From: a virus
Strand: one strand, 5' to 3'
Length of the DNA stretch: 64,000 bases
Virus record (IMG/VR): IMGVR_UViG_3300014208_000004
Coordinates: 1 to 64,000 of that record
The notes under the pieces are model-generated. The model did not search any database. It had not been told where the DNA came from and worked only from the letters and a program-made list of their open reading frames with translations. The first letter of the stretch is position 1; the number at the start of each line of letters is the position of its first letter. A program made the translations under genes and the position numbers. Of this stretch, positions 383-50,043 are shown in pieces.

Positions 383-934
383 ATGAAATTCACGAAAATT
401 TTATCGATCATTATATTTATGGTGTCATTGGTTGCTACATTGCCTGAGAGCGGAAACGCTCAATCGCAAACAGCACAATGGAATCAGAAATATACCGCAA
501 TGGCCATAGACTCAGCCCTTGCCGATGCAGGATCAAAAACAAGTCAACCAGTTGTTCTTTGGAACTATTCCCGGACGGGAGCGGCCGCATCTCAGGTAAA
601 TTATTTTACAAAAGCCTACGTTGCAGTTTCCGCAAAACAAACAAATGATTCCATACGCGCAAATGTTTTCTTATTGTATGGGAATAATATTGCAAGTGGA
701 ACTTTAGGGAAAGATTATTTCAAAGTTTGGGTAGACTCATTATATGCAGGAGTTGACAGTATTGGAACGCGACATGTCAATATTAAAATCGATGTATCAG
801 CATACACTACGTTTCCACAACTTGCCGTTATGGTTACAGGCAAATATTGGGGTAACGGATATGTGCCTACTTGGAGAGCATATTTTGGTGGAGTAGGAAC
901 CGACATGAAGTTAACTCCAAATACAACACCATAA
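383..934 (+). CDS. Signal-peptide protein, possible capsid decoration protein
   Basis: MKFTK, hydrophobic core, GNA|Q cleavage site. Beta-rich, with four D-S-(A/I/L) motifs. Directly follows the capsid gene; RBS GAAGGA. Confidence 0.6.
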   Translation: MKFTKILSIIIFMVSLVATLPESGNAQSQTAQWNQKYTAMAIDSALADAGSKTSQPVVLWNYSRTGAAASQVNYFTKAYVAVSAKQTNDSIRANVFLLYGNNIASGTLGKDYFKVWVDSLYAGVDSIGTRHVNIKIDVSAYTTFPQLAVMVTGKYWGNGYVPTWRAYFGGVGTDMKLTPNTTP

Positions 935-962
935 TTAAAATATTCATATTAACACCATCCAG

Positions 963-1000
963 AAGGTAGAAGGACAAAAACCCTTCTACCTTTTTTTATT
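963..1000 (+). terminator. Intrinsic terminator
   Basis: AAGGTAGAAGG / CCTTCTACCTT stem followed by a T run. Confidence 0.8.
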
Positions 1001-1027
1001 CAAACCATAAAGAGAAAAGGGAAAGTT

Positions 1028-1720
1028 ATGAAACATTATTTTCAGCACCCCAAAAGAACAGACGGATCATTGAACACATCAAAGGGAAAAATTGATTTTG
1101 TTACAGATGAATTTAATCGACCCGGAATATTTGCGATTCCGCATACCGAAGAAACACTTCCGGTAATTGAAGCACTACAGCAATTAAAATTGAAAGACAT
1201 CGGGGAGCCAACCACCGCCGAAAAAAAAGAAATTGAAAAAATCAATGCATCGCAAACAGGAACATTAACATTTTCATTGCCTAAAGGATTCAAATCCCCG
1301 GTTCACACATCAGCCGGAGATATCCCGTTTGTCAATGGACTTGCAACCGTTCATGGCAAACAAGCAGATATTCTCATAGCACTCAAATATCCAGTAGTTA
1401 ATGCAATCAAAGAAACCCCGCAAGATCAAAGCCCCAAAATTCTAATTGTCCCAACACGAGAAGAATATGCTATTGCTGGGTATGATCCTGAAAAATTCGA
1501 TACAGCCTTTCCTGGATTAAATCCCGGCGATAAATACACTGAAGAACAGTTGGACGAGAATAAAAAGAAAGCATCCGAAAAATTGCAGGATGAAAACAAA
1601 AAATTGACCTTCAAACAATTGAAACTCATTGCAAAAGAAAACGGCATCGAAACAAAAGACGTAACAGAGGAAGCATTGACCGCTACCTTGAAAGAAAAAA
1701 ATCTTTTACCAAACCAGTAA
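1028..1720 (+). CDS. Hypothetical protein with C-terminal Rho-N/HeH-like helical motif
   Basis: LTFKQLKLIAKENGIETKDVTEEALTATLKE; such genes commonly follow capsid genes. Confidence 0.55.
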   Translation: MKHYFQHPKRTDGSLNTSKGKIDFVTDEFNRPGIFAIPHTEETLPVIEALQQLKLKDIGEPTTAEKKEIEKINASQTGTLTFSLPKGFKSPVHTSAGDIPFVNGLATVHGKQADILIALKYPVVNAIKETPQDQSPKILIVPTREEYAIAGYDPEKFDTAFPGLNPGDKYTEEQLDENKKKASEKLQDENKKLTFKQLKLIAKENGIETKDVTEEALTATLKEKNLLPNQ

Positions 1721-1740
1721 TATTTAGAAGGAAAACTACA

Positions 1741-2187
1741 ATGAAAAATATAATCGTTTTATCTATCTTAGCAATTCAATTTTCTTTCTCCCAGGGATTA
1801 TCTATTAATACCAACGAGGGATTGAAAAAAGTTTCAGGTATGACTTACAACTATGAATCAATCATGCCCGATAGCGCAACGATATTTCTTAGTAAAGAAA
1901 ATGCATCAACAGCATACCTTGCTTTATCAAAAGTAAAAGCAGGACTTGATTCATTTGCAACAACCAACCTTACAAAGGAAATAACAGTTACAGGCGCAAT
2001 CGTTGGAGGTGCAGTTATAGTAACGCCGGCATACCCAGCATACTCAGCAACAGCAGATACGGGATTTCAATACTCTGGAGTTGTAAAAGCTGGAGGAGGA
2101 GCAATTACAATTACAAGGTCAGCATATCATGCAGGAGGAGTGCCAAAAAGCGCAGGCATCTTTAACTATCTGTACATTAAACCATAA
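1741..2187 (+). CDS. Signal-peptide protein, head decoration/spike-like
   Basis: MKNIIVLSILAIQFSFS|Q. The segment ITVTGAIVGGAVIVTP resembles small phage decoration proteins. All three Asp residues are followed by S or T. Confidence 0.55.
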   Translation: MKNIIVLSILAIQFSFSQGLSINTNEGLKKVSGMTYNYESIMPDSATIFLSKENASTAYLALSKVKAGLDSFATTNLTKEITVTGAIVGGAVIVTPAYPAYSATADTGFQYSGVVKAGGGAITITRSAYHAGGVPKSAGIFNYLYIKP

Positions 2188-2219
2188 TTATTTATTACAC
2201 AATCAAAAATGGAAATCAA

Positions 2220-2660
2220 ATGAAGATTGTTTTGTTTTTAATTGACTATGTGACATTATTTTTTCTATTGCAATTGCCAAGCCAGCAGTCTCAATCAATT
2301 GCCGACTTCCCTACTTTCCAAGGAGCCGTCTGGATATTGCTACTTGGATTAATTGCAACGGTAGTATGGTTCCTAAAAACAAATTCAAAAAAAACAGATC
2401 AGAAATTTTCCGATATGGAAACAAGAATAACGGAAAATGAAGATAAATACAATGACCGAGTAGAAAAACTTACAGAAAAATTGAATGGATTTGAAAAAAC
2501 CGTTATTAGTCAAAACGGTGATACTAAAGTACACTATCAAGACAAAATCCACGAAATGGAACGTAATATTTTGGAAGCTATAAACTCATTAAAAGAACAT
2601 TCTTATAAAGAGTTTGCAACCAAGGATGAAATGAAGGAAGTCCGAGAAAAAATAAAATAG
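2220..2660 (+). CDS. Membrane protein with C-terminal coiled coil (holin/antiholin-like)
   Basis: Hydrophobic N-terminus, TM segment GAVWILLLGLIATVVWFL, then a charged coiled coil. Confidence 0.55.
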   Translation: MKIVLFLIDYVTLFFLLQLPSQQSQSIADFPTFQGAVWILLLGLIATVVWFLKTNSKKTDQKFSDMETRITENEDKYNDRVEKLTEKLNGFEKTVISQNGDTKVHYQDKIHEMERNILEAINSLKEHSYKEFATKDEMKEVREKIK

Positions 2661-2669
2661 GATGGGATA

Positions 2670-3086
2670 ATGAGCGCGTACGATCAAGCAATAGCAAAAA
2701 TCAAACGCACATTAGGGGAACCAAGAAAAATACTGATAGTAGAGGACGAAGATTTAACAAGATCAGTCCTTAAAGGTTATTTTGAAGACAATGGATGTGC
2801 GGTTCTAGAGGGTGGAGATGGAATTAAAGCATTAACACTTTTTGAGAGCAATAGTGATATTGACCTTATTATCACTGATTTAAGAATGCCAAGGATGGAC
2901 GGCATTGAATTAATAAAAACAATCCGAGAAACAAATAAATCAATTCCAATTATCGTATTGACGGGTTTCCCAAACTACAACGACATACAAAGAATAGTTT
3001 CTAACGGATGGGTAGTTATGATAGGAAAGCCATTTAATATTGATGATATTGGAAGTATCTTTAAGTCATTTTTTGAAGGAGCATAA
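2670..3086 (+). CDS. Single-domain response regulator (CheY-like receiver)
   Basis: KILIVEDE acidic pocket, ITDLRMPRMDG phospho-Asp, IIVLTG and GKPF are all present. No output domain. Confidence 0.92.
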   Translation: MSAYDQAIAKIKRTLGEPRKILIVEDEDLTRSVLKGYFEDNGCAVLEGGDGIKALTLFESNSDIDLIITDLRMPRMDGIELIKTIRETNKSIPIIVLTGFPNYNDIQRIVSNGWVVMIGKPFNIDDIGSIFKSFFEGA

Positions 3087-3088
3087 TT

Positions 3089-3541
3089 ATGGAAAATCTT
3101 CATTTATTTTGGAATCAGTATTCAAACTATATTATTATTATTTTATCAATTTTTCTTTCGTTCTTAGCGGGGAAAAATAATGGAGTAATAAAGGCAATTG
3201 CAGATGTGTATGATGTTATAAAAACAGTTGTTGTATTTTTTGCAAAATCTCTTTCAGAGGAAGACGGCAACGGAGGGAAACCAAGTTTTAGTAGAATACT
3301 TGGAACGTACGCCTTGTTTGAGATAGTAGCAATGGCATGGGTGAAATTATATGCACCAACGACCTATTCTATTCCGGCAGAAATGATGACTCTATTTTAT
3401 TTTACAATCGGATATGCAATGTTAAGTAAGGTATTTTCAACAGCCAGTCCTTTACTTCAACAATTGATTGCTGCATATTTGCAGAAAGTTCAAAATTTAG
3501 CGTTACCACAAAACAAACCAGCCGATTCAACGAAAGCCTAA
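3089..3541 (+). CDS. Multi-pass membrane protein, putative holin
   Basis: Three to four hydrophobic helices; LSEEDGNGGKPSFSRILG loop of a kind seen in phage holin-like proteins. Confidence 0.5.
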   Translation: MENLHLFWNQYSNYIIIILSIFLSFLAGKNNGVIKAIADVYDVIKTVVVFFAKSLSEEDGNGGKPSFSRILGTYALFEIVAMAWVKLYAPTTYSIPAEMMTLFYFTIGYAMLSKVFSTASPLLQQLIAAYLQKVQNLALPQNKPADSTKA

Positions 3542-3543
3542 TA

Positions 3544-4641
3544 ATGAAACAAGTAATCCGGGAAAATACAAATCGAATTTATCTTGAAGATGCAAATTTT
3601 ATCGAAAATCTTTTTACGGTAACGGTAAGTATATTCGATGAAGCGGGAAACTTTGCAAAAGATTCTACAAACGCAGACATTCAAGATAAAACGGCAATAT
3701 TTGATACAACACTTAATCAATATTATATTGAAATATTATTCTTGCCAACACTTCCAATCGGATATTTAAGAGCATTTTGGGATGTAATAAAAATATCCGA
3801 TGGAGTAACTCAAAATGTTAATTCAGCATATACACCACAGGATTTAGAACTTGTATCATACGCAGGAGCAACAAGTCAAGAACCACAAATAGTGCCAATA
3901 TCTTTTTTCCTTGATAACTACGTAATGAAAAATGAAAAGTTAGATGCACAATACAAACAGGCCATTGATACGTATATTGCCTCCAATCGCAATGATATAT
4001 CACGTTGGCTTATGGCATCTCAGGGGAATTTAGAACTTACAACTAAACTCACATTTTTTACGAAACAAGAAACAATAAAATCGGATTATTATTCACAAAT
4101 ATTCCAAAATGAATATTGGTTACAACAGCCATACAACCGTCCGGTAATATCTTTAGAATCATTCAAACTTGTTTACGGAGCGCAGGAAGTGGATCTCATA
4201 ACAGAGATAAAGAATTTTATTATTGTAGATCAAAAGATGGGAACACTTCAATTCCTTCCAATTAGCACATCGGGAACTTTCTACCAGGTGTTGATGATGA
4301 ATATCAATGCATTAGCATTGACCGCAGCATTTAATACGGGGTCAGTAATACCAAGCCTATTTCATTATACATATACCTATGGATTAAATTTTATTACACT
4401 TGACCAATCAATGAAAGAAAGTATTCGGCAAGCAATAAGCCGAAATACACTTATTCGATTGTTACCAATTATCGATCCTTCGGTAAGAATAACAAGTTCA
4501 TCAAAATCTATGGATGGAGTAAGTAAAAGTCAAACCAGCGGTATTGCTGCAATGTTGAAAGAATTCAAAGAAGAAGAAAAACAATGGGTTGCTGATATAA
4601 AAATGAAATACGGAACTATGATTGACATGGCAATTGCCTAA
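3544..4641 (+). CDS. Head-tail connector/neck protein
   Basis: Position in the module; C-terminal ITSSSKSMDGVSKSQTS motif typical of SPO1-like adaptor proteins. Confidence 0.65.
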   Translation: MKQVIRENTNRIYLEDANFIENLFTVTVSIFDEAGNFAKDSTNADIQDKTAIFDTTLNQYYIEILFLPTLPIGYLRAFWDVIKISDGVTQNVNSAYTPQDLELVSYAGATSQEPQIVPISFFLDNYVMKNEKLDAQYKQAIDTYIASNRNDISRWLMASQGNLELTTKLTFFTKQETIKSDYYSQIFQNEYWLQQPYNRPVISLESFKLVYGAQEVDLITEIKNFIIVDQKMGTLQFLPISTSGTFYQVLMMNINALALTAAFNTGSVIPSLFHYTYTYGLNFITLDQSMKESIRQAISRNTLIRLLPIIDPSVRITSSSKSMDGVSKSQTSGIAAMLKEFKEEEKQWVADIKMKYGTMIDMAIA

Positions 4642-4652
4642 AGGAAACTACC

Positions 4653-5546
4653 ATGGGAATAATTTGGGATGAATACGATAACGAGGATATGTTTCAGGAA
4701 TTTTCAACGCCGTTCCTTTGGTTCCAGGCAAGACAAAGCCCCGCACTCCGAGAAGGATTGAATAAAACAAATACCGGAGCAATCTTTGGATATTACTACG
4801 AAGCGCAAGTAGCAGTTGACTTAGTAAGAACATCAATTAATTTATTTATAACCAATTCAGATAACGGACGGATATATAAAGGAGGATGCAAACTTCAAAT
4901 TCCACCAACAAAGTATGTCAATAGTGCATTTGTAAGACTTCCAATTTTTGATAATATTTTCAAAGGTGATGTTTTAGTAGCATTAAATAAACCAATCCGA
5001 GACTTTGACGTACTCACAAAAGGAATACGAGACAAAGTATTTGCATTTGATATAAAAACAATTCTTTCAGTTACAGCCGTTGATGCAAACAGCCAAGAAG
5101 TAACATATTATTATGGAACCGACTATGTTATAAAAATAGACGGAATAGAATATACGGTAATTGCAAACCAACTTTATCCAATTGGAGAAGGACAAGTTGG
5201 AGTTATACCAGCCGGAGGCCAGCCTTACCCAATTACATTTGCCGAAAACAATTCAAGCATTAATGTAAAATCAAATATTGAAATTATTTGGACGGTAGAT
5301 GGGAAACATCCAGCCGAAGGAGAAAAATACGGAATAGAATTTACTTGTTCGCCAAACTATGTAGTATGGGATAATGCTCCAAAGCCACGAGGAACAAGCG
5401 ACAATGATTTATCAAAAGTAGTATTATGTGTGAAACGAGCATTTTTCAATGACTCTCCAAACCCATTAGATAAGATTGATACAAATCAAAAAATAATGGG
5501 ACACAATCCAGTCTATGTTGACCAAGATTATGATGATAATGTGTAA
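4653..5546 (+). CDS. Head closure/neck protein
   Basis: Synteny; LWFQARQSP near the N-terminus and GEKYGIEFTCSPNYVV near the C-terminus. Confidence 0.5.
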   Translation: MGIIWDEYDNEDMFQEFSTPFLWFQARQSPALREGLNKTNTGAIFGYYYEAQVAVDLVRTSINLFITNSDNGRIYKGGCKLQIPPTKYVNSAFVRLPIFDNIFKGDVLVALNKPIRDFDVLTKGIRDKVFAFDIKTILSVTAVDANSQEVTYYYGTDYVIKIDGIEYTVIANQLYPIGEGQVGVIPAGGQPYPITFAENNSSINVKSNIEIIWTVDGKHPAEGEKYGIEFTCSPNYVVWDNAPKPRGTSDNDLSKVVLCVKRAFFNDSPNPLDKIDTNQKIMGHNPVYVDQDYDDNV

Positions 5547-5604
5547 TATTGATTTGTCAAATTAAAATGTGTAATTTAATCTCATAAAATTAACGGAGAA
5601 GTCA

Positions 5605-6213
5605 ATGGAAAGTTTATCCTTCAAAAAACCGCAACAGTCAAATCTTTCAGTCTTACTTAAAAATTATCTCTCTGAAAATCTTGGGGTCAAAGATAATAAA
5701 ATAATCAAAAGCCTAATTCAGCGAGCAGAAGATTTTAATTGCGAAATTATAAAATCTTTACCAAAGCATAATTTTGGATCACTGCATTTTAATTCACACC
5801 CGGCAATCCAAAAATCAAAACATAGTTATACCGGACAGAGCAACGAGGAATTGAATTATTTGCCGTCAATCATTGTAACCGAGTACGACAAAAAAGGGAA
5901 TTTTGTAGAAACAAAAATATGTACAGCTCCCATGATATTTGAAGAACCTTCAGCATACAATGATGAATGTTTTTGGTTACTCATATCCAATTTGTCAAAA
6001 AATAAATGGAGCAATACAGAAAAACGTTTAGACTTCATTGAAGATGCAGTAAAAGAATTGCAGAGCCGTGACAAAGAGCGAAAGAGAAAAGCAAAAGAAT
6101 ACGCAACCCTAAAAGAAAATGAACCCTTAAAAGCTGAATCATACGACTTAAAGGAAAAATTTTTTTGGGGAGCAAAAAGTTTTTACGGTGTTCCATTTAT
6201 TCCGTTTGAATAA
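5605..6213 (+). CDS. Hypothetical protein, possibly head-packaged (repeated IxKS motifs)
   Basis: RBS GGAG; motifs IIKS (twice), IQKS and LKA; possible own promoter TTGATT-17-TAATTT near 5549. Confidence 0.45.
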   Translation: MESLSFKKPQQSNLSVLLKNYLSENLGVKDNKIIKSLIQRAEDFNCEIIKSLPKHNFGSLHFNSHPAIQKSKHSYTGQSNEELNYLPSIIVTEYDKKGNFVETKICTAPMIFEEPSAYNDECFWLLISNLSKNKWSNTEKRLDFIEDAVKELQSRDKERKRKAKEYATLKENEPLKAESYDLKEKFFWGAKSFYGVPFIPFE

Positions 6214-6215
6214 AA

Positions 6216-7076
6216 ATGTTAATCCCAACATTCCGAATCAATACCGACTTATCAGTTTTGTCATTTCTTGAAAAAGGAAATGAACAATTCCAAGATCAAT
6301 TACAAATAGTAGTACGGCACTTTTCAGAAGTTGCGCTAAAGACATGGCACAATGAAGCAAATTTATCATTAAAAAATCCAACAAAATATATTGCCGGATT
6401 AGATAACACGCCACAATATCCATTCGATGGAAATCCGTTTCACGCAAGAATAGAAAACCAAGAAGATTTTGCATTTTACATAGAGTATGGAACAAAACCA
6501 TACGATATGAAGAAAATGTTATTGACTTCCAGTAAAGTAAAACAAGGCAAAAATGGGAAATATCTTATTATTCCATTTACTCATTCAAAAGAATCATTAA
6601 ATGCAGCAGGACTTGGCAAAGAAGTAGAATCATTAGCACCGTCCCGCAGACAAGTTCCAACGGCGATCGATCCCAGAAAATATAAATGGGGCGAACATAC
6701 TTCAGATATGGGAAACTACGGACGGGAAAGAAAAATATTTTCCGTTAATTATGATAAATTTGCACAAGAACGTCAAGGGCAAAAAGGAGTAATGACCTAT
6801 TATCGAGCCGGATCAGCATTCGCATCAGGAGTAAACTATAATTGGAAAGCATCAAAGTTTGAAGGAATAGTACGAATGGTAGATAATCAAGGCAAGACTA
6901 GCGAATATATTTCATTCAGAGTAATGAGTGAAAATAGTCCCGCTGATAGCTGGATACATCCAGGAATTAGGGCAAGCCACATCGCAGAAAATACCGCAAA
7001 CATAATAAAACCTCAGTTTCAAGAAGCAATTGCAAAGGTTATCAAAGATTCTTTTGGAAGAACAGGCATTTCTTAA
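6216..7076 (+). CDS. Neck/tail-completion protein
   Basis: AFYIEYGTKPYDMK, GKYLIIPF and FRVMSENSPADSWIHPG motifs; synteny. Confidence 0.65.
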   Translation: MLIPTFRINTDLSVLSFLEKGNEQFQDQLQIVVRHFSEVALKTWHNEANLSLKNPTKYIAGLDNTPQYPFDGNPFHARIENQEDFAFYIEYGTKPYDMKKMLLTSSKVKQGKNGKYLIIPFTHSKESLNAAGLGKEVESLAPSRRQVPTAIDPRKYKWGEHTSDMGNYGRERKIFSVNYDKFAQERQGQKGVMTYYRAGSAFASGVNYNWKASKFEGIVRMVDNQGKTSEYISFRVMSENSPADSWIHPGIRASHIAENTANIIKPQFQEAIAKVIKDSFGRTGIS

Positions 7077-7116
7077 AATAACAAAACTAACCTAATTTCT
7101 ACACTCCAAGAAAATT

Positions 7117-7157
7117 ATATTTGTTTGTCACAATTTGATGACAAACGATATTTTTTT
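7117..7157 (+). terminator. Hairpin plus T run (terminator or operator palindrome)
   Basis: GTTTGTCA-caatttga-TGACAAAC followed by a T run. Confidence 0.5.
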
Positions 7158-7184
7158 AATCCTACTTTTTAATTTCATACTTTT

Positions 7185-8105
7185 GTGGTTAATCCGATTA
7201 CATCATTTACCATAACAGCAGACCCCTTTGGAGGATCACTCATTTTAGAATGGGAATATCCTACGCCAATGCCAGCATCTTGGAAACTGTATATTTTCAA
7301 GAAAGCTAATTCTGCACCAGAAGACAGCGATATAGCAAAGTACTTTGCCGGCACTCTTACCAACGAGCAATTAAAACAATTAGGATTATTTGTATTTCAA
7401 GAAATTCCTCAAACGATAAATTATCGATCATTCTATGACTTAACTGTAAAAAATACTATTCCGTATTATTATAAAGCCGTTATTAAAAATTTGATAGACA
7501 ATGAATTATCAACAATCATTTCTGCAAGTGGAACTGCCAATCCAAACTTTGCAATCAATGTCATTGATGGGAAAAGCATCGTCTATAATGCAGTGAAAAA
7601 AGTGATTGATTCTTTGAATAGTTATGTGGGAACAAAACCAGAAGTACCGTTAAACATAAATATTCAAAGAAATTATTCACCGATGAAACCAGATGACACG
7701 GGATTTCAGATTGTTGTTTCACGCGGAGCCGGGCAATTAGCAAACCAAAGTTTTTCGCAGCGTTTTGGAACAGATGGACATGACTTAGTAAACGGAGTAA
7801 TTGATAAAGATGTTATTACAATTGAATGGATATGCACAGCCGATCCATTACGTAGGGATAATTTCACCAATATCATGAGAGTAATGAGACCAATCATGTT
7901 TCATTACATTATGAAGATGGGAAATAATAATATCCAATCGGTATCATTTATTATGGGGGGAGACGGACAAGCAATGCCAGAGAATGGAGCAAACCTACTT
8001 ACTGGAATGATGACTATAGCACTTGATATTCAGAATCAATTACAAATTGGGAATGCAATCACAAAACTTCCCCTTCAATCAATTACAACAACATACGAGG
8101 TATAA
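7185..8105 (+). CDS. Tail terminator-like virion protein (start uncertain)
   Basis: 306 aa ORF just upstream of the sheath gene; Ig/FN3-like N-terminus (LILEWEYP ... YYYKAV). Confidence 0.5.
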   Translation: MVNPITSFTITADPFGGSLILEWEYPTPMPASWKLYIFKKANSAPEDSDIAKYFAGTLTNEQLKQLGLFVFQEIPQTINYRSFYDLTVKNTIPYYYKAVIKNLIDNELSTIISASGTANPNFAINVIDGKSIVYNAVKKVIDSLNSYVGTKPEVPLNINIQRNYSPMKPDDTGFQIVVSRGAGQLANQSFSQRFGTDGHDLVNGVIDKDVITIEWICTADPLRRDNFTNIMRVMRPIMFHYIMKMGNNNIQSVSFIMGGDGQAMPENGANLLTGMMTIALDIQNQLQIGNAITKLPLQSITTTYEV

Positions 8106-8107
8106 TA

Positions 8108-8335
8108 ATGGAAGACGAAATTACTACAAATTCAAAAAAGAATTCTAAGATTATTCAGAAAGAAGAAGAACCAAAAATAAATCTTGGAACTTTTGTTGTC
8201 ATTAAAAAATTGACACCAGGACGGAAAGTAAGGGTTGAACAATTCTTACGCGAAGCAAAAGATACCGAAACAGAAAAAACAATAAATGCATGGGAAGATA
8301 TTTATAACCAATGCATGAGCCGAATAACAACTTAA
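8108..8335 (+). CDS. Small hypothetical protein before the sheath gene
   Basis: RBS GAGG; position. Confidence 0.6.
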   Translation: MEDEITTNSKKNSKIIQKEEEPKINLGTFVVIKKLTPGRKVRVEQFLREAKDTETEKTINAWEDIYNQCMSRITT

Positions 8336-8356
8336 TTATAATTATCATAAGGAGAC

Positions 8357-10075
8357 ATGATCATGTCATTAACATTAGGTGGAGTAGTTTATAATGTGCC
8401 CGGAGCCTTTGCAATAACCGAGGTAATAAATCAAGGAGGTAGCACAATCCCGATCTTCAACGTAGGTTGCATTATCGGTACAGGAATCTCAGGTATCCCG
8501 TATTTAAATGGCATCGGAACACCGCCAGCACTTACGGCAGATGAATTCATTTTACCATTCTCAGATACCGGAGCAGCAAAAGCATATTTTGGCGATGAAG
8601 GAGATTCAAACATCGTTACAGCTCTCAAATATGCAAAGAAAACTGGAGCCGGATCAGTGTACACAATCAACGTTAATCCATTGACAGCGATGTCAGGAGG
8701 AACGATTGCAAACGTAACACCAGTGACAGCGTTAACACTCAATACAACATTGAAACAATATGGAGTGAAAGCAAACGATACATCACTTACGATTGCAACA
8801 AGTATTCACACTATTATTCCAGTGAAGAACGTAACACTTCTTACGGCAAATAGTGGAACAGGAAAAACATTCTCGGTAGCAAGCGCAGATGTAATAGATC
8901 GATTGAATGTGGGAGATACAATTTACATTAACACCAATACATACGCAGCCCCAGTATCAAAAGTAATTGAAAGCAAAGATTCAGTTGCAAAAACAATTAC
9001 TGTTACGGTAGCAATTGCAGTGACAGCTTTGATTGCAGACTATGCACGTATCTATCAAGAAGATACGGACAATCAGGAAGTATCCGAAGCATTGACCACA
9101 CCGGCACTTGTTGAAGCATTTTACGCAACATCAAAATATGCAAGCGTAGTAGTTGCAGCAGGAGTTACGGTTATGCCAGTAACACTTGCAAAAACAAATT
9201 TCCAGAATATTACATCGGCGACAAAAGCAACCAGTCCGGCAGCAACAGCAAGCGATTGGGAAGCGATTACAGAAAACTTCCAACGATGGAATGAAGAATT
9301 TGCGCTTGTCAATAAAAAGTATATAAGAGTATTGAATCTCATTACAAGCGATGCAGCAAACCACGCATCATTTGCGACACTTGCAACTACAATGAGAGGT
9401 GTCAGTAAACCAATTGCCTTGATTGCAGGATGTGCATTGGGAGATTATCTATTGGCAACAAGCGATGCAGCAAGCCCAATAACAAGAGCAAAAGCATTAA
9501 ACAGTGATGCTATTCAACTTGCACAAGTTGGATTAGACGGCAATGCGGCATATCTATCAATGTCACCAGAAATATTTGGTATCAGAATCAGCAACGCAAT
9601 TACTCATAACCAGACCAATGATTTATTGGTAGCTACCACGGTAGAGAAAGCATATTATCAGGAAGATGCAGCACTTGATACATTATGCGTAAACGGAGTA
9701 ATGGCAATCAAGATGACACCAACAGGATTCAAACTTGCACAGGGACTTACTACCTATCAAGACCACGCAACAACATTCAACACCGATACAAAGATGACCT
9801 ATCTTGTAACACTTAGAGATTTGGCAGACTTTGATTTACGTTTGATGTTAGAATTACTGGATCAATTTGTTGGAGCCGATGGAGTAACAAGAGAAATACT
9901 TTCCAGTGCGATTGTTCAAGCAAGTGAGACCGAACAAAACCAGTTGCAATACATTACATCATATCAGATTCAAAGCATTACACGAACTGGAAACGCATGG
10001 ACAGTTGAACGAACAATCACATTGCCGGGAGTAACGGACTTTATCGGACTCATTAACACAATCATTGTTGATTAA
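8357..10075 (+). CDS. Contractile tail sheath protein
   Basis: N-terminal YNVPGAF and IIGTGISGIP; C-terminal NGVMAIK, AQGLTTYQ and LDQFVG; Ala/Thr-rich; RBS AGGAG. Confidence 0.85.
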   Translation: MIMSLTLGGVVYNVPGAFAITEVINQGGSTIPIFNVGCIIGTGISGIPYLNGIGTPPALTADEFILPFSDTGAAKAYFGDEGDSNIVTALKYAKKTGAGSVYTINVNPLTAMSGGTIANVTPVTALTLNTTLKQYGVKANDTSLTIATSIHTIIPVKNVTLLTANSGTGKTFSVASADVIDRLNVGDTIYINTNTYAAPVSKVIESKDSVAKTITVTVAIAVTALIADYARIYQEDTDNQEVSEALTTPALVEAFYATSKYASVVVAAGVTVMPVTLAKTNFQNITSATKATSPAATASDWEAITENFQRWNEEFALVNKKYIRVLNLITSDAANHASFATLATTMRGVSKPIALIAGCALGDYLLATSDAASPITRAKALNSDAIQLAQVGLDGNAAYLSMSPEIFGIRISNAITHNQTNDLLVATTVEKAYYQEDAALDTLCVNGVMAIKMTPTGFKLAQGLTTYQDHATTFNTDTKMTYLVTLRDLADFDLRLMLELLDQFVGADGVTREILSSAIVQASETEQNQLQYITSYQIQSITRTGNAWTVERTITLPGVTDFIGLINTIIVD

Positions 10076-20646: not shown

Positions 20647-22017
20647 ATGTCAGTTGTATTTAATAAAGATACTGGAGGCACTCTTAATACTGGATTAGTA
20701 GCCTATTGGAGACTAAATGACCTAAATGATTCCGTAGGGACTAATCATTTAATTCAGGCAGGAAACAATGGAGTGCCAGCGGGAAATGATGTAACATTTC
20801 ATGCAGGAGGGAAGGGACTAGGATTTGCAAGATTTACAAGAACATCGGCAACTATATTTCAAGCATTAAGGGGAAACGCACCAGCTACAACAAGAGTAAC
20901 AGATTTTACTATTTGCGCATGGGTAAATATTCCAATCACGGAAACCGTTGGATGGATAATACATAACGGCGATGCTACCATTGCGAGTAATTTTGAAAAC
21001 AATGGATGGAGCCTTGGTTACGGAACAGCAGGTTCACCAACCACGTATGGAAAATTAAGAGCAGAAGCAAACGCAGTTAGCACGCCCGCCGAAAATGGTT
21101 TAATCAACTTAGGGACTTGGGTTTTTGTGCTAATGACAGTAACCGCAGGGAATTTATGGACGTTATATATTAACGGCGTATCCGTAGCTTCTGGGGCAGG
21201 AGGTGCAACACGAACACCAACAGCCAATATTGAATTTGGAATTTCTAGTTTATGGCCTGCCCTTTATGGAAGTCAAACTCCATTAAATGGAGATGTACAA
21301 GAATCTGGCGTATGGAATAAAGTTACATCAGCACAAGAAATTAGCGACTTATATAATAGTGGAATAGGTCAAACAAAAGTTACTCTTACCGCAAGCGCAG
21401 GAGCAAACGGAGCAATTTCTACACCGGGAAGCACTATCCTTGCTTATGGAGCAAATCAAACATTTACCATTACTCCAGATTCAGGATATATCGTTTCAAA
21501 TGTATTTGTTGATGGAATATCAGTAGGAGCCGTATCAAGTTATACCTTTACAAACATTATAAGCAATCATACTATTATAGCGACATTTGAAGCATTTGTT
21601 CCAATTATAACGGGCAGCCAAAATGGAAGTCAACTTATAATTTCTTGGGATGCAGTATCAAATGCAAAAAATTATCAACTTGAAAGAAAAACTCCAAGCG
21701 GTGACAATTATGAAGTTATCGCAACTATCTTTGATACAACATATACCGATAATCAAATATTTTCAAACACAACTTATAATTATAGATTAAAATCCATTGC
21801 CTTACCAGGATATACAAATAGTGGTTATTCTTATCTAAATATCAGAACAACAAATTTTGATGGACAACCTCAAGCATCATTGTTACAATCGCAGGAACAA
21901 CCTTTATCAAACAGTGTGAGATTTGGAGATCAACAGGCATTCAACGAATTCTATTTTGGACAACCAGAGGGATCATTCAAAACACTTGAAAAATATTTAC
22001 CGAGATTTATAAAATGA
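20647..22017 (+). CDS. LamG/ConA-like lectin, InlB-B-type repeat and FN3 domain virion protein
   Basis: GLVAYWRLND, FTICAWV and TLYING (LamG); TLTASAGANGAIS...TFTITPDSGY...VDG...NHTIIATF (bacterial repeat); ISWDAVSNAKNYQLER...YNYRLKS (FN3). Confidence 0.8.
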   Translation: MSVVFNKDTGGTLNTGLVAYWRLNDLNDSVGTNHLIQAGNNGVPAGNDVTFHAGGKGLGFARFTRTSATIFQALRGNAPATTRVTDFTICAWVNIPITETVGWIIHNGDATIASNFENNGWSLGYGTAGSPTTYGKLRAEANAVSTPAENGLINLGTWVFVLMTVTAGNLWTLYINGVSVASGAGGATRTPTANIEFGISSLWPALYGSQTPLNGDVQESGVWNKVTSAQEISDLYNSGIGQTKVTLTASAGANGAISTPGSTILAYGANQTFTITPDSGYIVSNVFVDGISVGAVSSYTFTNIISNHTIIATFEAFVPIITGSQNGSQLIISWDAVSNAKNYQLERKTPSGDNYEVIATIFDTTYTDNQIFSNTTYNYRLKSIALPGYTNSGYSYLNIRTTNFDGQPQASLLQSQEQPLSNSVRFGDQQAFNEFYFGQPEGSFKTLEKYLPRFIK

Positions 22018-26705: not shown

Positions 26706-26739
26706 AATATGCGCCCTAACCAAGCGCATATTTTATTTC
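26706..26739 (+). terminator. Terminator closing the virion module
   Basis: AATATGCGC-cctaaccaa-GCGCATATT followed by TTATTT. Confidence 0.65.
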
Positions 26740-26793
26740 TAAAATAGGACTTGACAATAAATAAGATAATTGGCTATATTACTTCCAGACAGA
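26732..26793 (+). promoter_or_regulatory. Repeated sigma70-type promoter cassette, copy 1
   Basis: TTGACA (26751), 18 bp, TATATT (26775); 62 bp identical to 60962-61023. Confidence 0.85.
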
Positions 26794-26828
26794 AGCAATA
26801 TCTAACCACAAATAAACAGGAGAAGGTT

Positions 26829-26993
26829 ATGAGAAAAATACGATACACATTATCGTTTATCTTTGCAGTAACAGCAGTAGGATCAGCATACTTGCTATCT
26901 ATTAACGGACAAGCCGAGAATGCAATGGGGATGGGAATAATATTTGCATTTTTTTCAGTGATTGTAATCCCAGATTCAAAAGTGAAAGTATGA
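26829..26993 (+). CDS. Small two-TM membrane protein
   Basis: RBS AGGAG before ATG 26829; two hydrophobic helices. Confidence 0.6.
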   Translation: MRKIRYTLSFIFAVTAVGSAYLLSINGQAENAMGMGIIFAFFSVIVIPDSKVKV

Positions 26994-41245: not shown

Positions 41246-41989
41246 ATGACAGAACAAACAGAAAAAATACCAGCCCGTCACAGAAGCCTTGACCAAAATC
41301 AAAAAATTCAATTCCGTAAAATGGTAGAGGCTGGGAAGCCTGAAACAACCATTGCAAAATACTTTCAAATAACAGTAAGGAACGTTCAGAAGCGAATTAA
41401 GGCTATGGGATTGACCCCAAAGGTGAACGAGGAGATAAAGAAAGATATTGTCTCAAAGGTAAAAGAACTGAAGGCAGCCGAGGCATTTTCAAAAGCAAGC
41501 AAGATAACTCAAGATAATTATGACCTAGTACAAAACTTATTTAATAATCTTGCTACTCTTAATGGATTAATAGAATTAAATAAAAACAGAATTATCCTTG
41601 CAGAGAAAATGCGAGGAAAGAATAAAGATGATAGAAAACATCAGGAATTTTTACTCAAAACAATATCTGAAATTAATAAGACCGCAGAAACCTTAGTTGA
41701 CCTTAGAAAGCAATTGTTGAGTGATGAAGAAATAAGGATATTCAAAGATGCAGTCATGTTATGGATAGAGAATAAAAATCCCGAATTCAAAAAAGAGTTA
41801 ATCAATGCAATCAACAGTATTCGATTTAGCAGACAACTTAACGGAATCAATAGCCGCAACTATTCCACAGGACAACCAGAGCTCTCAGCCCACCCAGCCA
41901 ATCCTACTTCTAGACAAGGAATCACAGTTTTGGAAGAAGAAGGAGTTTTGGAAGGACGGGAACCCAGTGGACATTATAGAATTTTGTGA
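41246..41989 (+). CDS. Terminase small subunit (putative)
   Basis: N-terminal HTH (IAKYFQITVRNVQKRIK); overlaps the large subunit. Confidence 0.55.
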   Translation: MTEQTEKIPARHRSLDQNQKIQFRKMVEAGKPETTIAKYFQITVRNVQKRIKAMGLTPKVNEEIKKDIVSKVKELKAAEAFSKASKITQDNYDLVQNLFNNLATLNGLIELNKNRIILAEKMRGKNKDDRKHQEFLLKTISEINKTAETLVDLRKQLLSDEEIRIFKDAVMLWIENKNPEFKKELINAINSIRFSRQLNGINSRNYSTGQPELSAHPANPTSRQGITVLEEEGVLEGREPSGHYRIL

Positions 41990-43832
41990 AATCAAAATTG
42001 GTATATTCCCTTCCCCAGTTCAAAAAGAAATACTTTACAAACTTGCCGGACGAGATCCATACGAATGGGATACTGAGTATCAACAGTATATCATTGCGGT
42101 AGGACAAGGAGGAGGGAAAAATAAATATATCATTGCACCGTTCACCGCATACACAGCCTACAAGATAGCCAATATGAAAGACCCTTGGATGTATTTTTCA
42201 AGGTTCACCAACGAGAAGATTGACCGATCAACAAAATTTGAAATTACAAACAGTTCCCTAGTCAACGCGGATCAAGCAGAGACGGTTCACTTTGACAATA
42301 TGAAGTCATTACTCAGGAGAGTAAAAGACCCGGACGGCCAGAATTGGTTTGAGAAATATGCAGGGATGAATATGAATGATAGTTTTGGAGATATTAAAAC
42401 CGGAACGATTAGTATTCCCACACATATAGGATGTGGAGATATTATCATGTATTCATTCGATAGCACACCAACAGCCCCAGAAGGTAAAAGTATTATTCTA
42501 GGAATAGTTGACGAGCCAAGCCGAGCCGAGACCAAGGCCACATTCAAAAAAGCAAAACAATTATGGAATGTTATTTCAGGAAACCTAAACACACGGTTTG
42601 GAAGAAATGTAGGAAAGCAAATTGCACTTTCATATCTCAATAATTCCGAATATGATTTAACATATCATTTATTGCAGCAAGCCGAGGAGGAAGATAAATT
42701 ATTCAAAGGCACTGCAAATAAATCTATAATGTATGCAGTAAACTATTCCACGTTTGACGTAAATCCAAATGCATCTAAAACCGATCCAGCAGTTGCAAAG
42801 ATGTATAGAAACGATTTATCAGATGCACAAGCAAGATACGAAGGAGTAAAAGGAACGGCCAAAGAAGGATTTTTCCAACCATATCCCCAAAAGATCAGAG
42901 AATGTTATTTTGACATTGAAAGTCCGGTAAAATATAAATATGGAGTTACAGCCCGACAAGTTACCAATCCAAGAACAGAACAAGTACAAATAAATAAATT
43001 TGTAAAAATAGATTTTGAATCTATCAAAGGAGATAATAAAATCCGTGGATGGGCATACGATCCAGCCGAAAAGTACGATGGATTTGTTCTTAAAGGTGGA
43101 TACATTGAAACAATGGATGAAATGAAAGATGAACTCTTTATCGGCAACCGGGAAGAACTTATTGTTATTAACCAACGCCCAATAATTGACATTACTATCA
43201 TTTGGCAGCCACAGAACGGATTAACAGTTGACTTTGAAAATGTTGGAGAAGTACTTGGGATACTCATTAAGAAATTCCCAAACAGTAGATTTGCTTACTC
43301 TGATAAATGGAACAGTATAAGTTTTAGCCAACAATTCCAGAGCAAAGGAATTTTTAGTGAAACATTTGGATTTGGAAACGCCCAGCAATTAAAATATTAT
43401 TCCAAAGTACGATGGATGATGTTTAATAATATTCCGCAATTCGCAAAAAATAATATGTTGCTGAAGAAAAACGGAGTAGAAAAAACAATAGGAGACTGGG
43501 AAATATCTGAATTTGAAAGATTGTTAAAAGAAAATAATCGGGTCGATCATCCAGTTGGAGGCAGCAAGGATCTCTCGGATAGCAATGTAATTCTTATCAA
43601 CGGACTCATTGAACTGCAAGGAGCCGGCACGGTAATGAGTGGAGCAAGTTCATTGACCGATGTAAAGATAACAGCCCTAGTAGACAGATTTATGGTAGAA
43701 CGACAGAAATTACGAAATTTGAAAGTAAACCCCAGTTTATTCTTAAAACTCATTGCGGCCGAGTTAGAGATGAATATGAAAGACATCCAGACCCTTGCAG
43801 ACCACGTAAATCAATACTTCCCAAATACTTGA
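41805..43832 (+). CDS. terL: Terminase large subunit
   Basis: VGQGGGKN Walker A, GIVDEPSR Walker B, nuclease motifs AYDPAEKYDGF and VDHPVGGSKDLSD. Confidence 0.85.
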   Translation: MQSTVFDLADNLTESIAATIPQDNQSSQPTQPILLLDKESQFWKKKEFWKDGNPVDIIEFCEIKIGIFPSPVQKEILYKLAGRDPYEWDTEYQQYIIAVGQGGGKNKYIIAPFTAYTAYKIANMKDPWMYFSRFTNEKIDRSTKFEITNSSLVNADQAETVHFDNMKSLLRRVKDPDGQNWFEKYAGMNMNDSFGDIKTGTISIPTHIGCGDIIMYSFDSTPTAPEGKSIILGIVDEPSRAETKATFKKAKQLWNVISGNLNTRFGRNVGKQIALSYLNNSEYDLTYHLLQQAEEEDKLFKGTANKSIMYAVNYSTFDVNPNASKTDPAVAKMYRNDLSDAQARYEGVKGTAKEGFFQPYPQKIRECYFDIESPVKYKYGVTARQVTNPRTEQVQINKFVKIDFESIKGDNKIRGWAYDPAEKYDGFVLKGGYIETMDEMKDELFIGNREELIVINQRPIIDITIIWQPQNGLTVDFENVGEVLGILIKKFPNSRFAYSDKWNSISFSQQFQSKGIFSETFGFGNAQQLKYYSKVRWMMFNNIPQFAKNNMLLKKNGVEKTIGDWEISEFERLLKENNRVDHPVGGSKDLSDSNVILINGLIELQGAGTVMSGASSLTDVKITALVDRFMVERQKLRNLKVNPSLFLKLIAAELEMNMKDIQTLADHVNQYFPNT

Positions 43833-45993: not shown

Positions 45994-46089
45994 CTTTACG
46001 ACCGCTAACTATGCGCGGGTTAAAACGTGCTGACAAAAAACGCTTTAGGGCGTTGGACAATTAACTGAAAATAATTTTATGACTGAAAA

Positions 46090-46619: not shown

Positions 46620-46918
46620 TGAACTTACTTGAACATCTTATAAAAAATCCCCAGACGGCAATAGTGCCGAACAATGCGTTAATAGGGAGCCAAGTAGCAT
46701 GGACAATTCAAGAACTTATCCATGTAAGCCCGGCAATGTACGAACTATTAAACGATACCGGGATGGACAATCAAGAATTGTATTTCATTGCCCAGAACAT
46801 TGAAGTAACATTTCCACCAAAGACAACTCTTGTTACACAATTAATAATCTCAAGCATCAATAAGGAACTTCAACAACGATTCAAAAAAATACACGGAGAA
46901 CAGCATGTCACACGGTAA
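46616..46918 (+). CDS. Hypothetical protein
   Basis: Coupled ORF. Confidence 0.5.
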   Translation: MMNLLEHLIKNPQTAIVPNNALIGSQVAWTIQELIHVSPAMYELLNDTGMDNQELYFIAQNIEVTFPPKTTLVTQLIISSINKELQQRFKKIHGEQHVTR

Positions 46919-47465: not shown

Positions 47466-47471
47466 TCATTT

Positions 47472-47744
47472 ATGCCATCCCCAGAAAGACTTGCTCATTT
47501 ACGGAAACGGGATCAATACTATATGGATCAATACCAGCAAGAACACCCGCAAATAACAAGGTTTAAGTTAAGAGTACAAGCATCCGAAAAAGCACGAGCA
47601 ATACTGAAGAAATGTAAACCCCCAGAACCAACACTGGGGGAAATAGCAAAATTATTTTTCTTTGCCTTAATCAAAAAAATAGGTTACTTTTGTATAAAGA
47701 AACCAACAAAAAGGGTAAAGAAAAATGCCAATAGAAATGGATGA
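47472..47744 (+). CDS. Hypothetical protein
   Basis: Basic ORF before the portal gene. Confidence 0.4.
   Translation: MPSPERLAHLRKRDQYYMDQYQQEHPQITRFKLRVQASEKARAILKKCKPPEPTLGEIAKLFFFALIKKIGYFCIKKPTKRVKKNANRNG
47661..47692 (+). promoter_or_regulatory. Bacteroidota-type primary-sigma promoter upstream of the portal gene
   Basis: TTTG-20 bp-TACTTTTG matches TTTG(N19-21)TAnnTTTG. Confidence 0.45.
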
Positions 47745-49500
47745 AATTCCCGCCGTTACACCGAACAATATCCCGATGGATTATCTTAATAAGATTATCA
47801 AAGCAAACGAACAGCAATCAGCAAAAATTGATGAACTTCTAAAGACCAATCCAAAACTATCAAAAGACTACGAAGAATTTTCCAATAAACAGGCAGCAAA
47901 AAACGCCGAGCAAACCCGCCAAGAACAAAATGACCTAGTATCCATGATATTTGATTCTATTTATGCACCAGGGACAACCTTGGATGATAAAGGATTCAAG
48001 TGGATTGATAACGCAATCGGTAGACGAGTACCATACGGATATTTACGCAAAGCCGGACGAACAGAAGTTCCAAGGATGATAAAAAATCTAAGAAGGTATC
48101 AACTCACAGAGTACGGAGAACTTGCAGCCCGGAAACAATATGGTAAAGAAGTAGGATTTTGCCTAGAATGGATAGACCCGCAATTCAAACCAACCAAGGA
48201 TCAGGAAAAACGCAGAATATTTTTTGAAAAAGAAATTCACTCAAATTTTTTCTATCCGGCCAACGCCAGCATTCCGAGCTTTATACAATTCCTTGGACAA
48301 GCATACGAAGATTATTTTGACTACGATGATATCACTTTCAAAATAATTCGGGATGGAATGAACAACCCCATTGCCTTACAGCTAGAAGACCCGACCATTT
48401 ATAAAGCCACAGTGCCAAAAGTAAAAAATTATTTACGTTATGACCGAGCGTTTCTGCAGGACGTAACGGAAAAGCTTCCATTAGAATCAGAGCCGTTAGA
48501 GTATGATTATATTTTACGATTTGACGGCCAGACCAAACAAGCATTCACACGAGACAATCTTTATAAATCTCATTTTTTTGTCCAGACCGATTCAGCCATG
48601 TATAAAACAGGCTTTTCGATCATGGAACAAGCAATCAATACTCTTTCCATAATCTTAAATGCAACTGCATTCAATGCAAGCAATTTTTCAAACAACAGAA
48701 CACCTACTGGACTACTTGCAATTACAGGAGGAGTAACAAACCAATTGCAAATTGAGAAGTTAAAAAAACTTTTCTGGGCACAAATGACAGGAGCAAGTAG
48801 CCAGCATAAAATTCCAATAGTAGGACTTCCAGAAAAAGGAGATGCAAAATGGGTATCAGTCCATGGCACTGCAAAGGAGATGGAATTCTATGTAGGACTT
48901 ACTTTATTCTATTCAATCGTATACGCATTATCCGGGACAGACCCGAATGAATCAAGCCTTGCAAACTTTCACGATACTCAGAAGACAGGAGGATTGACCG
49001 AGGAGAACAAGGATGGAATATATCGAAAATCAAAAGATACAGGGCTAGTAACATTCACGGCCTATGTAAAAGGAATGCTAAATATTCCAATGACAGATGG
49101 ATCAACAATTTGGGAACAAGCAACCGGACTCCCGGTAAGAATTGGTATCAAAGGTATTGCTGAAGAAAACATGGATGCAAAGATGAAAGTCAATGCACAG
49201 CGATTGAAAGTTGATGCAAGCTACAACGAAATCCGAAAAGAGAATGGCCAGCCAGAAGAAGAATATCTTGTTGAAACACCAAACGGAAAAATAAATATTT
49301 ATGATGTTGTAGGATTAGTAGACCAATCAATAAATAGCTTTATTAAAGCAGATGTTCAAGCCGTTCAACAAGAAAAACAGCAACAACAAGCAATGGAGCA
49401 ACAGCAACTTGCAGCAGAGCAACAGGCAAACGCAGAACAAGAACAATATTCCGCAGAAGACGAATCTCTCATTCAACAATATGGGTCACCACAAGAATAG
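47725..49500 (+). CDS. Portal protein (SPO1/Twort-like)
   Basis: DYFDYDDITF, DPTI, GFSIMEQA, FNASNFSNNRTPTGLL, HKIPIV, KEMEF and SKDTGL motifs. Confidence 0.85.
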   Translation: MPIEMDEIPAVTPNNIPMDYLNKIIKANEQQSAKIDELLKTNPKLSKDYEEFSNKQAAKNAEQTRQEQNDLVSMIFDSIYAPGTTLDDKGFKWIDNAIGRRVPYGYLRKAGRTEVPRMIKNLRRYQLTEYGELAARKQYGKEVGFCLEWIDPQFKPTKDQEKRRIFFEKEIHSNFFYPANASIPSFIQFLGQAYEDYFDYDDITFKIIRDGMNNPIALQLEDPTIYKATVPKVKNYLRYDRAFLQDVTEKLPLESEPLEYDYILRFDGQTKQAFTRDNLYKSHFFVQTDSAMYKTGFSIMEQAINTLSIILNATAFNASNFSNNRTPTGLLAITGGVTNQLQIEKLKKLFWAQMTGASSQHKIPIVGLPEKGDAKWVSVHGTAKEMEFYVGLTLFYSIVYALSGTDPNESSLANFHDTQKTGGLTEENKDGIYRKSKDTGLVTFTAYVKGMLNIPMTDGSTIWEQATGLPVRIGIKGIAEENMDAKMKVNAQRLKVDASYNEIRKENGQPEEEYLVETPNGKINIYDVVGLVDQSINSFIKADVQAVQQEKQQQQAMEQQQLAAEQQANAEQEQYSAEDESLIQQYGSPQE

Positions 49501-49502
49501 CC

Positions 49503-49595
49503 ATGGAAATAATAATTAGTGTGATAGCCTTACTTACAATTTTATGCATTAAAATATTTCACATTATTTATAACTATCCAAAAATTGACGAATAA
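49503..49595 (+). CDS. 30-aa single-TM peptide
   Basis: MEIIISVIALLTILCIKIFHIIYNYPKIDE; below the ORF-track cutoff. Confidence 0.35.
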   Translation: MEIIISVIALLTILCIKIFHIIYNYPKIDE

Positions 49596-49626
49596 TATTT
49601 AATAATTAATAAAAAAGGATAACACA

Positions 49627-50043
49627 ATGAAAAAGATTTTATTTTTAGTAATACTAACCATAGGGATATTATCGGCGCAAGACATAGAAGTATTCAACAA
49701 TAAAACATTGATAAACAGTCAAAGCGATACAAGCGCAGTTATTATAGACGTACCAACCTTCAAACAAATTTCAGGATTTTTTTCCAGCAATGATAGCACC
49801 AATGGTATACTTTATACTGATTATCGATTAAAAGACGGACAAAAATTTGCGGTGGCAACCGCAGAAACCATTACGGTAGCCAGCTCCACGGGAGCAGGAT
49901 ACGGAACAGCTATTCGCAGTCATTGGAATGACAAAGTTCCAGGATCACATCAGTTGCGATTCAGATTTGTTACCTTGTCCAGCGGTAATAATACTCAGGC
50001 AACCATAAAAAGATATAATTTTAATTTAAGTATAGAAAAATAA
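49627..50043 (+). CDS. Signal-peptide beta-rich protein after the portal gene
   Basis: MKKILFLVILTIGILSA|Q; DTS and DST motifs; C-terminal QLRFRF strand. Confidence 0.65.
   Translation: MKKILFLVILTIGILSAQDIEVFNNKTLINSQSDTSAVIIDVPTFKQISGFFSSNDSTNGILYTDYRLKDGQKFAVATAETITVASSTGAGYGTAIRSHWNDKVPGSHQLRFRFVTLSSGNNTQATIKRYNFNLSIEK

Follow-up and report, generated by a model that had tools for sequence, protein, structure and literature searches.

Probably exported, in part sequon-rich late proteins of an uncultured tailed phage as candidate host-glycosylated accessory fibres or decoration

In glycosylated mycobacteriophage virions, phage-encoded glycosyltransferases modify capsid and tail proteins that have no leader, and do so in the cytoplasm. 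Signal-peptide genes are found among the late and tail genes of coliphages, as with T5 Llp, lambda Lom and Bor, and Cor, and their products work at the envelope of the host, where they block receptors or confer serum resistance. These are small lipoproteins or outer-membrane barrels that are neither fibre-like nor glycosylated, and they often have their own promoter; T5 Llp adjoins the receptor-binding gene. In the Bacteroidota, Porphyromonas gingivalis prophages encode proteins of unknown function with Q-rule leaders, read as an adaptation to Bacteroidota secretion (Matrishin 2023, PMC10367356), and general O-glycosylation modifies cellular, non-cytoplasmic proteins at a short Asp-Ser/Thr motif, or sequon (PMC12871550, PMC8550257, PMC8729774). 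Phage-encoded Sec substrates and Bacteroidota O-glycoproteins are known already, but virion parts that mature in the periplasm would, if shown, be categorically new. In the literature we found no paper that links exported phage proteins to the Bacteroidota O-glycosylation motif or that describes leader-bearing tail fibres, and a single one, Matrishin 2023, that notes phage proteins obeying the Q-rule. Here we describe five late proteins with predicted leaders, three of them rich in this motif, in an uncultured 94-kb tailed phage, IMG/VR record IMGVR_UViG_3300014208_000004 (94,259 bp). The window analysed comprises bases 1-64000 of this record; coordinates marked G000 are those of the whole record. 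An earlier note on the window had proposed a host-glycosylated phage coat.

Leaders were called by a hydrophobicity scan of 115 open reading frames (ORFs) on the + strand, by the -3/-1 rule applied by eye and by conservation. Five N-termini were picked out. Four belong to the genes on which the earlier note had placed classical signal peptides, and the translations match its description (the slash marks the cleavage site): ORF383 (383..934, +, 183 aa, leader 1-26, GNA/Q27), ORF1741 (1741..2187, +, 148 aa, leader 1-17, FSFS/Q18), ORF22586 (22586..23266, +, 226 aa, leader 1-20, MYS/Q21) and ORF49627 (49627..50043, +, 138 aa, leader 1-17, LSA/Q18). The fifth and largest member, P0006 (G000 83229-85109, 626 aa, leader 1-17, SFS/Q18), lies outside the window and is absent from that note. 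All five leaders are 17-26 residues long, start with MK or MR, have A or S at -1 and small residues at -1/-3, and show the n-h-c layout. The Gln with which the mature proteins had been said to begin is kept in every homologue, so that the leader ends directly ahead of Gln in 5/5 proteins and 17/17 homologues (22/22 sequences from five unrelated families). Gln at +1 is a signature of signal peptidase I (SPase-I) substrates in Bacteroidetes, with a mean of ~71% vs <9% in most Chlorobi, and some other lineages of the FCB group share it, Ignavibacterium for one (77%; PMC5837995). That the five proteins are Sec/SPase-I substrates of a Q-rule (Bacteroidota-type) host is well supported by these sequences, and we consider their export likely.

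The hydrophobic N-termini could instead be anchors that keep assembly intermediates at the inner membrane, or propeptides removed by a phage protease, with the proteins staying unglycosylated in the cytoplasm; or the host could lack O-glycosylation. The leaders were called heuristically, one homologue of ORF22586 (on the metagenomic contig L004) has Pro at -1, and a prohead protease has been suggested to remove some predicted capsid leaders (Matrishin 2023, PMC10367356). However, the layout, length, -1/-3 residues and invariant Gln described above have the look of SPase-I/Q-rule leaders. Moreover, the sequon is meaningful only outside the cytoplasm and is enriched 5-fold in these proteins and nowhere else in the genome, whereas cultured phages carry the P0006 repeat without a leader and with an ordinary sequon density. 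On balance we regard this group of explanations as improbable.

There is no Cys in any of the five proteins, and hence no lipobox, which sets them apart from T5 Llp, Lom, Bor and Cor. Neither a C-terminal sorting domain of the type IX secretion system (T9SS; Pfam, NCBIfam) nor a beta-barrel signature was found in the five, and no paralogy was detected between them and any other phage gene. The GC content of the genes, overall and at third codon positions (GC3), is within 1.3 standard deviations of the genome mean, which points to long residence. Several candidate explanations were rejected on these grounds. Lipoproteins of the Llp/Cor type, spanins and disulfide-dependent folding as the reason for export all fail for want of Cys; T9SS cargo fails for want of the C-terminal domain, and decoy copies of the phage's own fibres for want of paralogy. 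Recent acquisition as a moron was rejected because GC and GC3 are normal, ORF22586 has no flanking signals, and ORF383 and ORF49627 have no evident promoter of their own.

The strict sequon was defined as D[ST][AILVMT], and its expected number was taken from composition-preserving shuffles of each protein. The five proteins hold 27 such sites on 60 Asp, as against 81 on ~1511 Asp elsewhere in the genome (Fisher odds ratio 14, p 2e-17). A comparison of motif density with the rest of the phage proteome, for which the earlier note had asked, finds the leader-bearing set enriched and the remainder (27,305 residues) at chance, with 81 sites vs 72 expected (ratio 1.12). The three most motif-enriched proteins genome-wide are ORF22586 (8 observed vs 1.25 expected, p<0.0005), P0006 (13 vs 2.6, p<0.0005) and ORF383 (4 vs 0.6, p 0.0035). 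The D[ST] counts first reported for the window proteins are correct (8/13 Asp in ORF22586, 4/8 in ORF383, 3/3 in ORF1741 and 2/7 in ORF49627). However, that count accepted any D-S/T-x, and the sequon richness drawn from it holds for ORF22586 and ORF383, as it does for P0006, but not for ORF1741 and ORF49627 with one strict site each. Over the families together, 78 sequons are observed vs 17.5 expected. Each single member of the ORF22586 and ORF383 families shows a significant excess, which is marginal for ORF49627 and absent for ORF1741.

An origin of the excess as a by-product of Ser/Thr-rich fibre composition or of internal repeats, unrelated to glycosylation, is very improbable. The five proteins are indeed 18-25% Ser+Thr, and two DST sites of ORF22586 lie within a short internal repeat, but the shuffles that give the p values above preserve composition. 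In the motif-rich proteins, 40-60% of all Asp stand ahead of S/T plus a residue that the motif allows, and individual sites are invariant among homologues at 60% identity. Equally Ser/Thr-rich leaderless fibre homologues and cellular homologues carry 0-0.8 sequons per 100 aa, as against 2.0-3.5 here. We consider it well supported by these statistics that ORF22586, ORF383 and P0006 are built for dense host O-glycosylation. In Bacteroidota the motif alone suffices for modification, almost every site outside the cytoplasm is occupied, glycans are also added to motifs that are engineered or foreign, and Ser is also commonly accepted at the third position, according to a 2025 review that makes no mention of phages (PMC12871550). 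Given export, the motif-bearing proteins are very likely to be glycosylated. The described substrates of the pathway differ in being cellular; the density here, ~5x chance, may be unusually high.

Two further ORFs touch on this set. ORF28964 (28964..29257, +, 97 aa), an uncertain member with a highly charged middle, had been listed as secreted. Its C-terminus does carry DSI and DTT (2 sequons vs 0.3 expected, p 0.04), but no Gln follows its N-terminal hydrophobic segment, which may be a membrane anchor instead of a cleaved leader. Outside the window, a 95-aa Cys-containing ORF (G000 65839-66126) has a hydrophobic N-terminus with no positive n-region, a possible ...ISQTWTS/QT junction and 2 sequons vs 0.4 expected (p 0.06); it is a possible sixth member of the exported set.

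Co-translation with the tail module was found for ORF22586 alone. Its start overlaps, as ATGA, the stop of ORF22014 (22014..22589, +), a leaderless 191-aa gene, and the pair recurs with the same 4-nt overlap in L004, a related metagenomic contig. Baseplate wedge, lectin-domain and fibre genes flank it, and no promoter- or terminator-like signal of its own was detected. Its homologues are four proteins and one contig ORF, all metagenomic and all with a leader directly followed by Gln. Within this family the sequons DTT49 and DS[MVI]83 are invariant and the mature N-domain is conserved (to ~residue 135), while the C-domains are unrelated and vary in length; the homologue P0003 has at its end a Pfam K1-lyase_C domain (E 1e-17), known as the C-domain of phage tailspikes. 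Judged by its sequence family, ORF22586 is probably fibre-like, with a conserved anchor and a variable tip as in virion fibres. Among the homologues recovered for the leader-bearing proteins, P0004 and P0009 are carried on 38-39-kb contigs.

P0006 probably also folds as a fibre, as its relatives suggest. Its central repeat (~residues 230-470) has >12,600 representative homologues and matches tail fibre, spike and appendage genes of cultured Achromobacter and Flavobacterium phages (29-38% identity) as well as an unannotated Synechococcus phage protein; there are weak matches to phrog_6002 and phrog_4636, and the ESM Atlas gave only weak fibre- and adhesin-type leads. The cultured-phage proteins with this repeat lack a leader and hold 0-0.8 sequons per 100 aa vs 2.0 in P0006. 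Of the best 149 homologues of the repeat, 83 have a leader, 69 of these 83 with Gln near the cut; these are large secreted proteins of fibre type from cells, and the cellular homologues have an ordinary sequon density (median ~0.3 per 100 aa). Since both leaderless phage relatives and cellular relatives stand at ordinary density, it is the copy of this phage, and not the repeat family, that combines leader and sequon load.

Cellular fibres of the Bdellovibrio mosaic adhesive trimer (MAT) type offer a parallel, being phage-like trimeric fibres with export signals that are displayed outside the cytoplasm (PMC10769870). Of three P0006 homologues scanned, two (P0012 and P0084) match NCBIfam Bdello_MAT_N weakly, below cut-off, and P0006 itself does not match. 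MAT-type fibres differ in being encoded by cellular genes, in their length of 500-5000 aa and in their ordinary sequon density.

A 37-codon ORF (G000 85109-85222; L002:10810-10923) starts in overlap with the stop of P0006 and at its other end overlaps the start codon of the next gene, for a leaderless protein of 352 aa rich in Ser/Thr. Its leader is of lipoprotein type, MKKLFYTILLASTLCS followed by Cys, with a lipobox-like LCSC. The mature part has only ~20 aa, and the product could be a very small lipoprotein akin to Llp, Cor or an o-spanin.

ORF383 is predicted to be exported and beta-rich, with sequons at DSA43, DSI89, DSL118 and DSI125. Three metagenome homologues (60-77% identity) keep the leader, Gln27 and sequons 89, 118 and 125. 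The deposited gene call (P0007, 171 aa) begins at the internal Met13 and so removes the leader; however, the homologues have Ala at this position and share the upstream MK start, and AAGGA precedes the ATG at 383. The gene follows that of the major capsid protein, whose C-terminal part lies at 2..334 (+; phrog_752, major head protein, E 4e-13) and which crosses the circular junction (G000 ~93009 to 334, a 494-codon open frame over the junction). A strong intrinsic-terminator-like hairpin (961..994, +; 13-bp stem and T run) lies just after ORF383, which by its position shares a terminator-bounded transcription unit with the capsid gene. A terminator-like scan also placed an 8-bp hairpin with a weak T tail over the capsid stop codon (322..342, +), possibly an attenuator or RNA-stabilising hairpin.

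ORF1741 has two metagenome homologues that keep the leader and Gln18; here the C-terminal ~80 aa are conserved and the front part is variable. Four homologues of ORF49627, also from metagenomes (64-78% identity), leave the leader, Gln18 and DST56 invariant. The homologues of these two proteins were found with one mixed two-family alignment and then sorted by family alignment. ORF49627 closes the portal transcription unit, and a terminator-like hairpin follows it (50069..50094, +). The placement of the set after the capsid, among fibre genes and after the portal is as first described, except that beyond ORF49627 come a terminator and then genes that are non-structural. For the four proteins of the window there was no match among Pfam, PHROG, NCBIfam or PDB sequences; profile searches of the four window families and P0006 against PDB sequences gave nothing below E 0.2, and ORF383 had no lead in the ESM Atlas.

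Directly after the hairpin, at 50096, begins one copy of a ~90-nt conserved element that occurs three times on the + strand (26732-26830, 50096-50195 and 60962-61065; chance expectation 0 copies). It holds TTGACA-N18-TATATT, a conserved leader and then AGGAG 5-7 nt ahead of ATG, and resembles a reiterated strong, perhaps early, promoter with a ribosome-binding site.

The closest parallel from virions comes from Cellulophaga phage phi18:3 (NC_021794, Pachyviridae, host Cellulophaga baltica), in which the consecutive late products gp085-gp087 also start with a leader directly followed by Gln (YS/QV, SA/QT, NA/QT). The record annotates gp085, gp086 and gp087 (2892-8584) as structural or tail virion proteins from tandem mass spectrometry. 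Phi18:3 differs in being a podovirus, and gp085-087 have no sequence similarity to the proteins described here. No paper commenting on these leaders was found.

The five proteins could also be exported and glycosylated and yet act in or outside the envelope of the infected cell, in receptor masking, superinfection exclusion, protection from debris, help in lysis or a change of surface. The gene neighbourhoods speak on both sides. ORF383 and ORF49627 each end a transcription unit before a terminator, as add-on genes often do, ORF1741 adjoins two membrane-protein genes and P0006 is coupled to the 37-codon lipoprotein ORF; ORF22586, however, has neither a promoter nor a terminator to itself and in two phages overlaps at its start with the stop codon of a tail-module gene, and the GC and GC3 of the set are genome-typical. 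As for the proteins themselves, a module of receptor-binding type might block the receptor if placed in the periplasm, and the close relatives of the P0006 repeat are for the most part proteins that cells secrete, with leader and Gln. However, there is no lipobox, beta-barrel signature or T9SS domain, hence no evident route to the outer membrane or surface, and it is virion fibres that typically join a conserved anchor to distal domains that vary. Precedent is divided as well. The exported coliphage proteins encoded near tail genes (T5 Llp, lambda Lom and Bor, Cor of phi80 and N15) act at the envelope, while phi18:3 shows that leader-bearing proteins can occur in virions. In Porphyromonas phages, proteins that obey the Q-rule were interpreted as altering the outer membrane of the host; these differ in belonging to temperate phages discussed for host physiology and virulence, in a paper without glycosylation or fibre architecture (Matrishin 2023, PMC10367356). 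A role confined to the envelope, the alternative raised in the earlier note, is in our view the main rival, though less likely than a place on the virion.

We favour a place on the virion because of the tail-operon coupling, the anchor and tip architecture, the fibre and tailspike homologies and the precedent of phi18:3. As we picture it, the five late chains would be exported unfolded through the host Sec translocon and the leader cut by signal peptidase I ahead of Gln, which a host glutaminyl cyclase would convert to pyroglutamate. The general O-glycosylation system of the host would then load glycans, up to 8 on ORF22586, 13 on P0006 and 4 on ORF383. Folding would take place in the periplasm, probably as fibres for ORF22586 and P0006, with release at cell lysis. 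The released proteins could then attach to completed particles as accessory fibres or decoration by means of whichever domain is conserved, which is the N-domain for ORF22586 and its family and the C-domain for that of ORF1741, and the particle would gain glycan-coated, exopeptidase-protected outer parts. As in the mycobacteriophages, glycans would sit on outer proteins of a tailed phage; the difference is that the modifying system would be that of the host periplasm and its targets exported proteins. If the leaders are taken as genuine, what is known of the host pathways leads on to each of the earlier steps, from export and cleavage ahead of Gln to cyclisation and O-glycosylation. Association of the five proteins with virions is, in our judgement, evenly balanced, and the account as a whole, from export and pyroglutamate capping to joining at lysis, would have an even chance of being right. 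From the original proposal, Sec export of the Q-rule type and the glycosylation design of three proteins stand, by sequence statistics and conservation. The word coat is too strong, since only ORF383 is tied to the capsid gene, through its transcription unit, and the best-characterised members are fibre-like.

A host in the Bacteroidota, in the broad (GTDB) sense, is very probable, given the Gln at +1 in 22/22 sequences, the sequon excess, the Q-rule leaders of P0006 relatives and the weak use of Shine-Dalgarno sequences (12% with 5-mers, 36% with 4-mers). The motif excess is a signature reported mainly for Bacteroidota (PMC12871550). The lineage of the phage is far from any cultured phage, yet its exported proteins point to such a host. 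A DNA-level search found no close cultured phage, and the only relatives found for the terminase and portal, at 21-25% identity, come from large myoviruses that infect Gram-positive bacteria (Bacillus, Listeria, Brevibacillus, Streptomyces).

Several observations weigh against this account. Tailed-phage heads and tails assemble in the cytoplasm, so that periplasmic parts could join only at or after lysis, and we know of no periplasmic route described for tailed-phage parts. The virion proteins of phi18:3 are sequon-poor, with 1 site each vs ~3 expected, which implies that leader and glycan load are separable traits. Within the present set, the single strict sites of ORF1741 and of ORF49627 are not significant. 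AlphaFold2 gave no usable fold for ORF383 (4-sequence alignment, pLDDT, the predicted local distance difference test, 46) or ORF22586 (6 sequences, pLDDT 33). As to the host, TTGACA-N18-TATATT with AGGAG is nearer to classical sigma-70 and Shine-Dalgarno signals than to the textbook Bacteroides promoter, and the nearest cultured relatives of portal and terminase, at 23-24% identity, infect Gram-positives. Scans of GTDB genomes with an alignment (A1) and with P0006 gave no match and hence no host genome, no CRISPR link to a host came to light, and IMG/VR scans with ORF22586, ORF383, the portal and a family alignment found no relative. A metagenome scan returned one 1.5-kb contig.

The remaining features of the genome are those of a tailed phage. 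The record carries a 123-bp terminal repeat and is rated 100% complete, with a GC content of ~36% and essentially all real genes on the + strand. Tail, baseplate and fibre genes span ~3.5-25.5 kb and include a tail-fibre-like gene (3544), a tail lysin (13711), a baseplate protein (17650), a baseplate wedge subunit (18499) and a fibre gene (23723). Two genes upstream of ORF22586, the tail-module protein at 20647-22017 has a Laminin_G_3 (ConA-like lectin) domain and an InlB B-repeat-like domain, and is likely a leaderless carbohydrate-binding receptor-recognition protein. The large terminase lies at 41805-43832 and the portal protein at 47725..49500 (+; phrog_11117, phrog_12, Pfam Phage_portal), the latter ~24% identical to portals of SPO1-like phages. 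After ORF1741 come ORFs at 2220 (two hydrophobic segments, coiled-coil tail), 2670 (stand-alone receiver-domain-like, phrog_731) and 3089 (multiple transmembrane segments); this cluster (2220-3541) may be a lysis or membrane cluster within the head-tail region. ORFs 2220, 3089 and 26829 are membrane proteins with multiple transmembrane segments and do not count as leader-bearing.

A wider reading, which we hold to be somewhat less likely than not, is that tailed phages of Bacteroidota route outer virion parts, namely fibres and perhaps decoration, through Sec. Capped with pyroglutamate and cloaked in host O-glycan in the periplasm, these parts would meet the particles built in the cytoplasm only at lysis; to our knowledge neither such split-compartment assembly nor such a cloak has been described for a tailed phage. 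If true, part of the host-recognition gear of a tailed phage would be made by bacterial secretion and glycosylation machinery, and a step in the periplasm or after lysis would have to be added to models of how tailed phages assemble. The host genes for O-glycosylation and for glutaminyl cyclase would then be phage-dependency factors, and mutants in them should yield defective or altered particles. Such phages would wear a glycan specific to the host species, which bears on immune recognition and on the stability of gut and environmental Bacteroidota phages. Automatic gene calls can hide such leaders, as with ORF383, and the absence of a signal peptide has been used as a criterion for phage origin (PMC6199706). 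A leader directly followed by Gln, together with a sequon excess, may also serve as a cheap marker of host phylum for uncultured phages.

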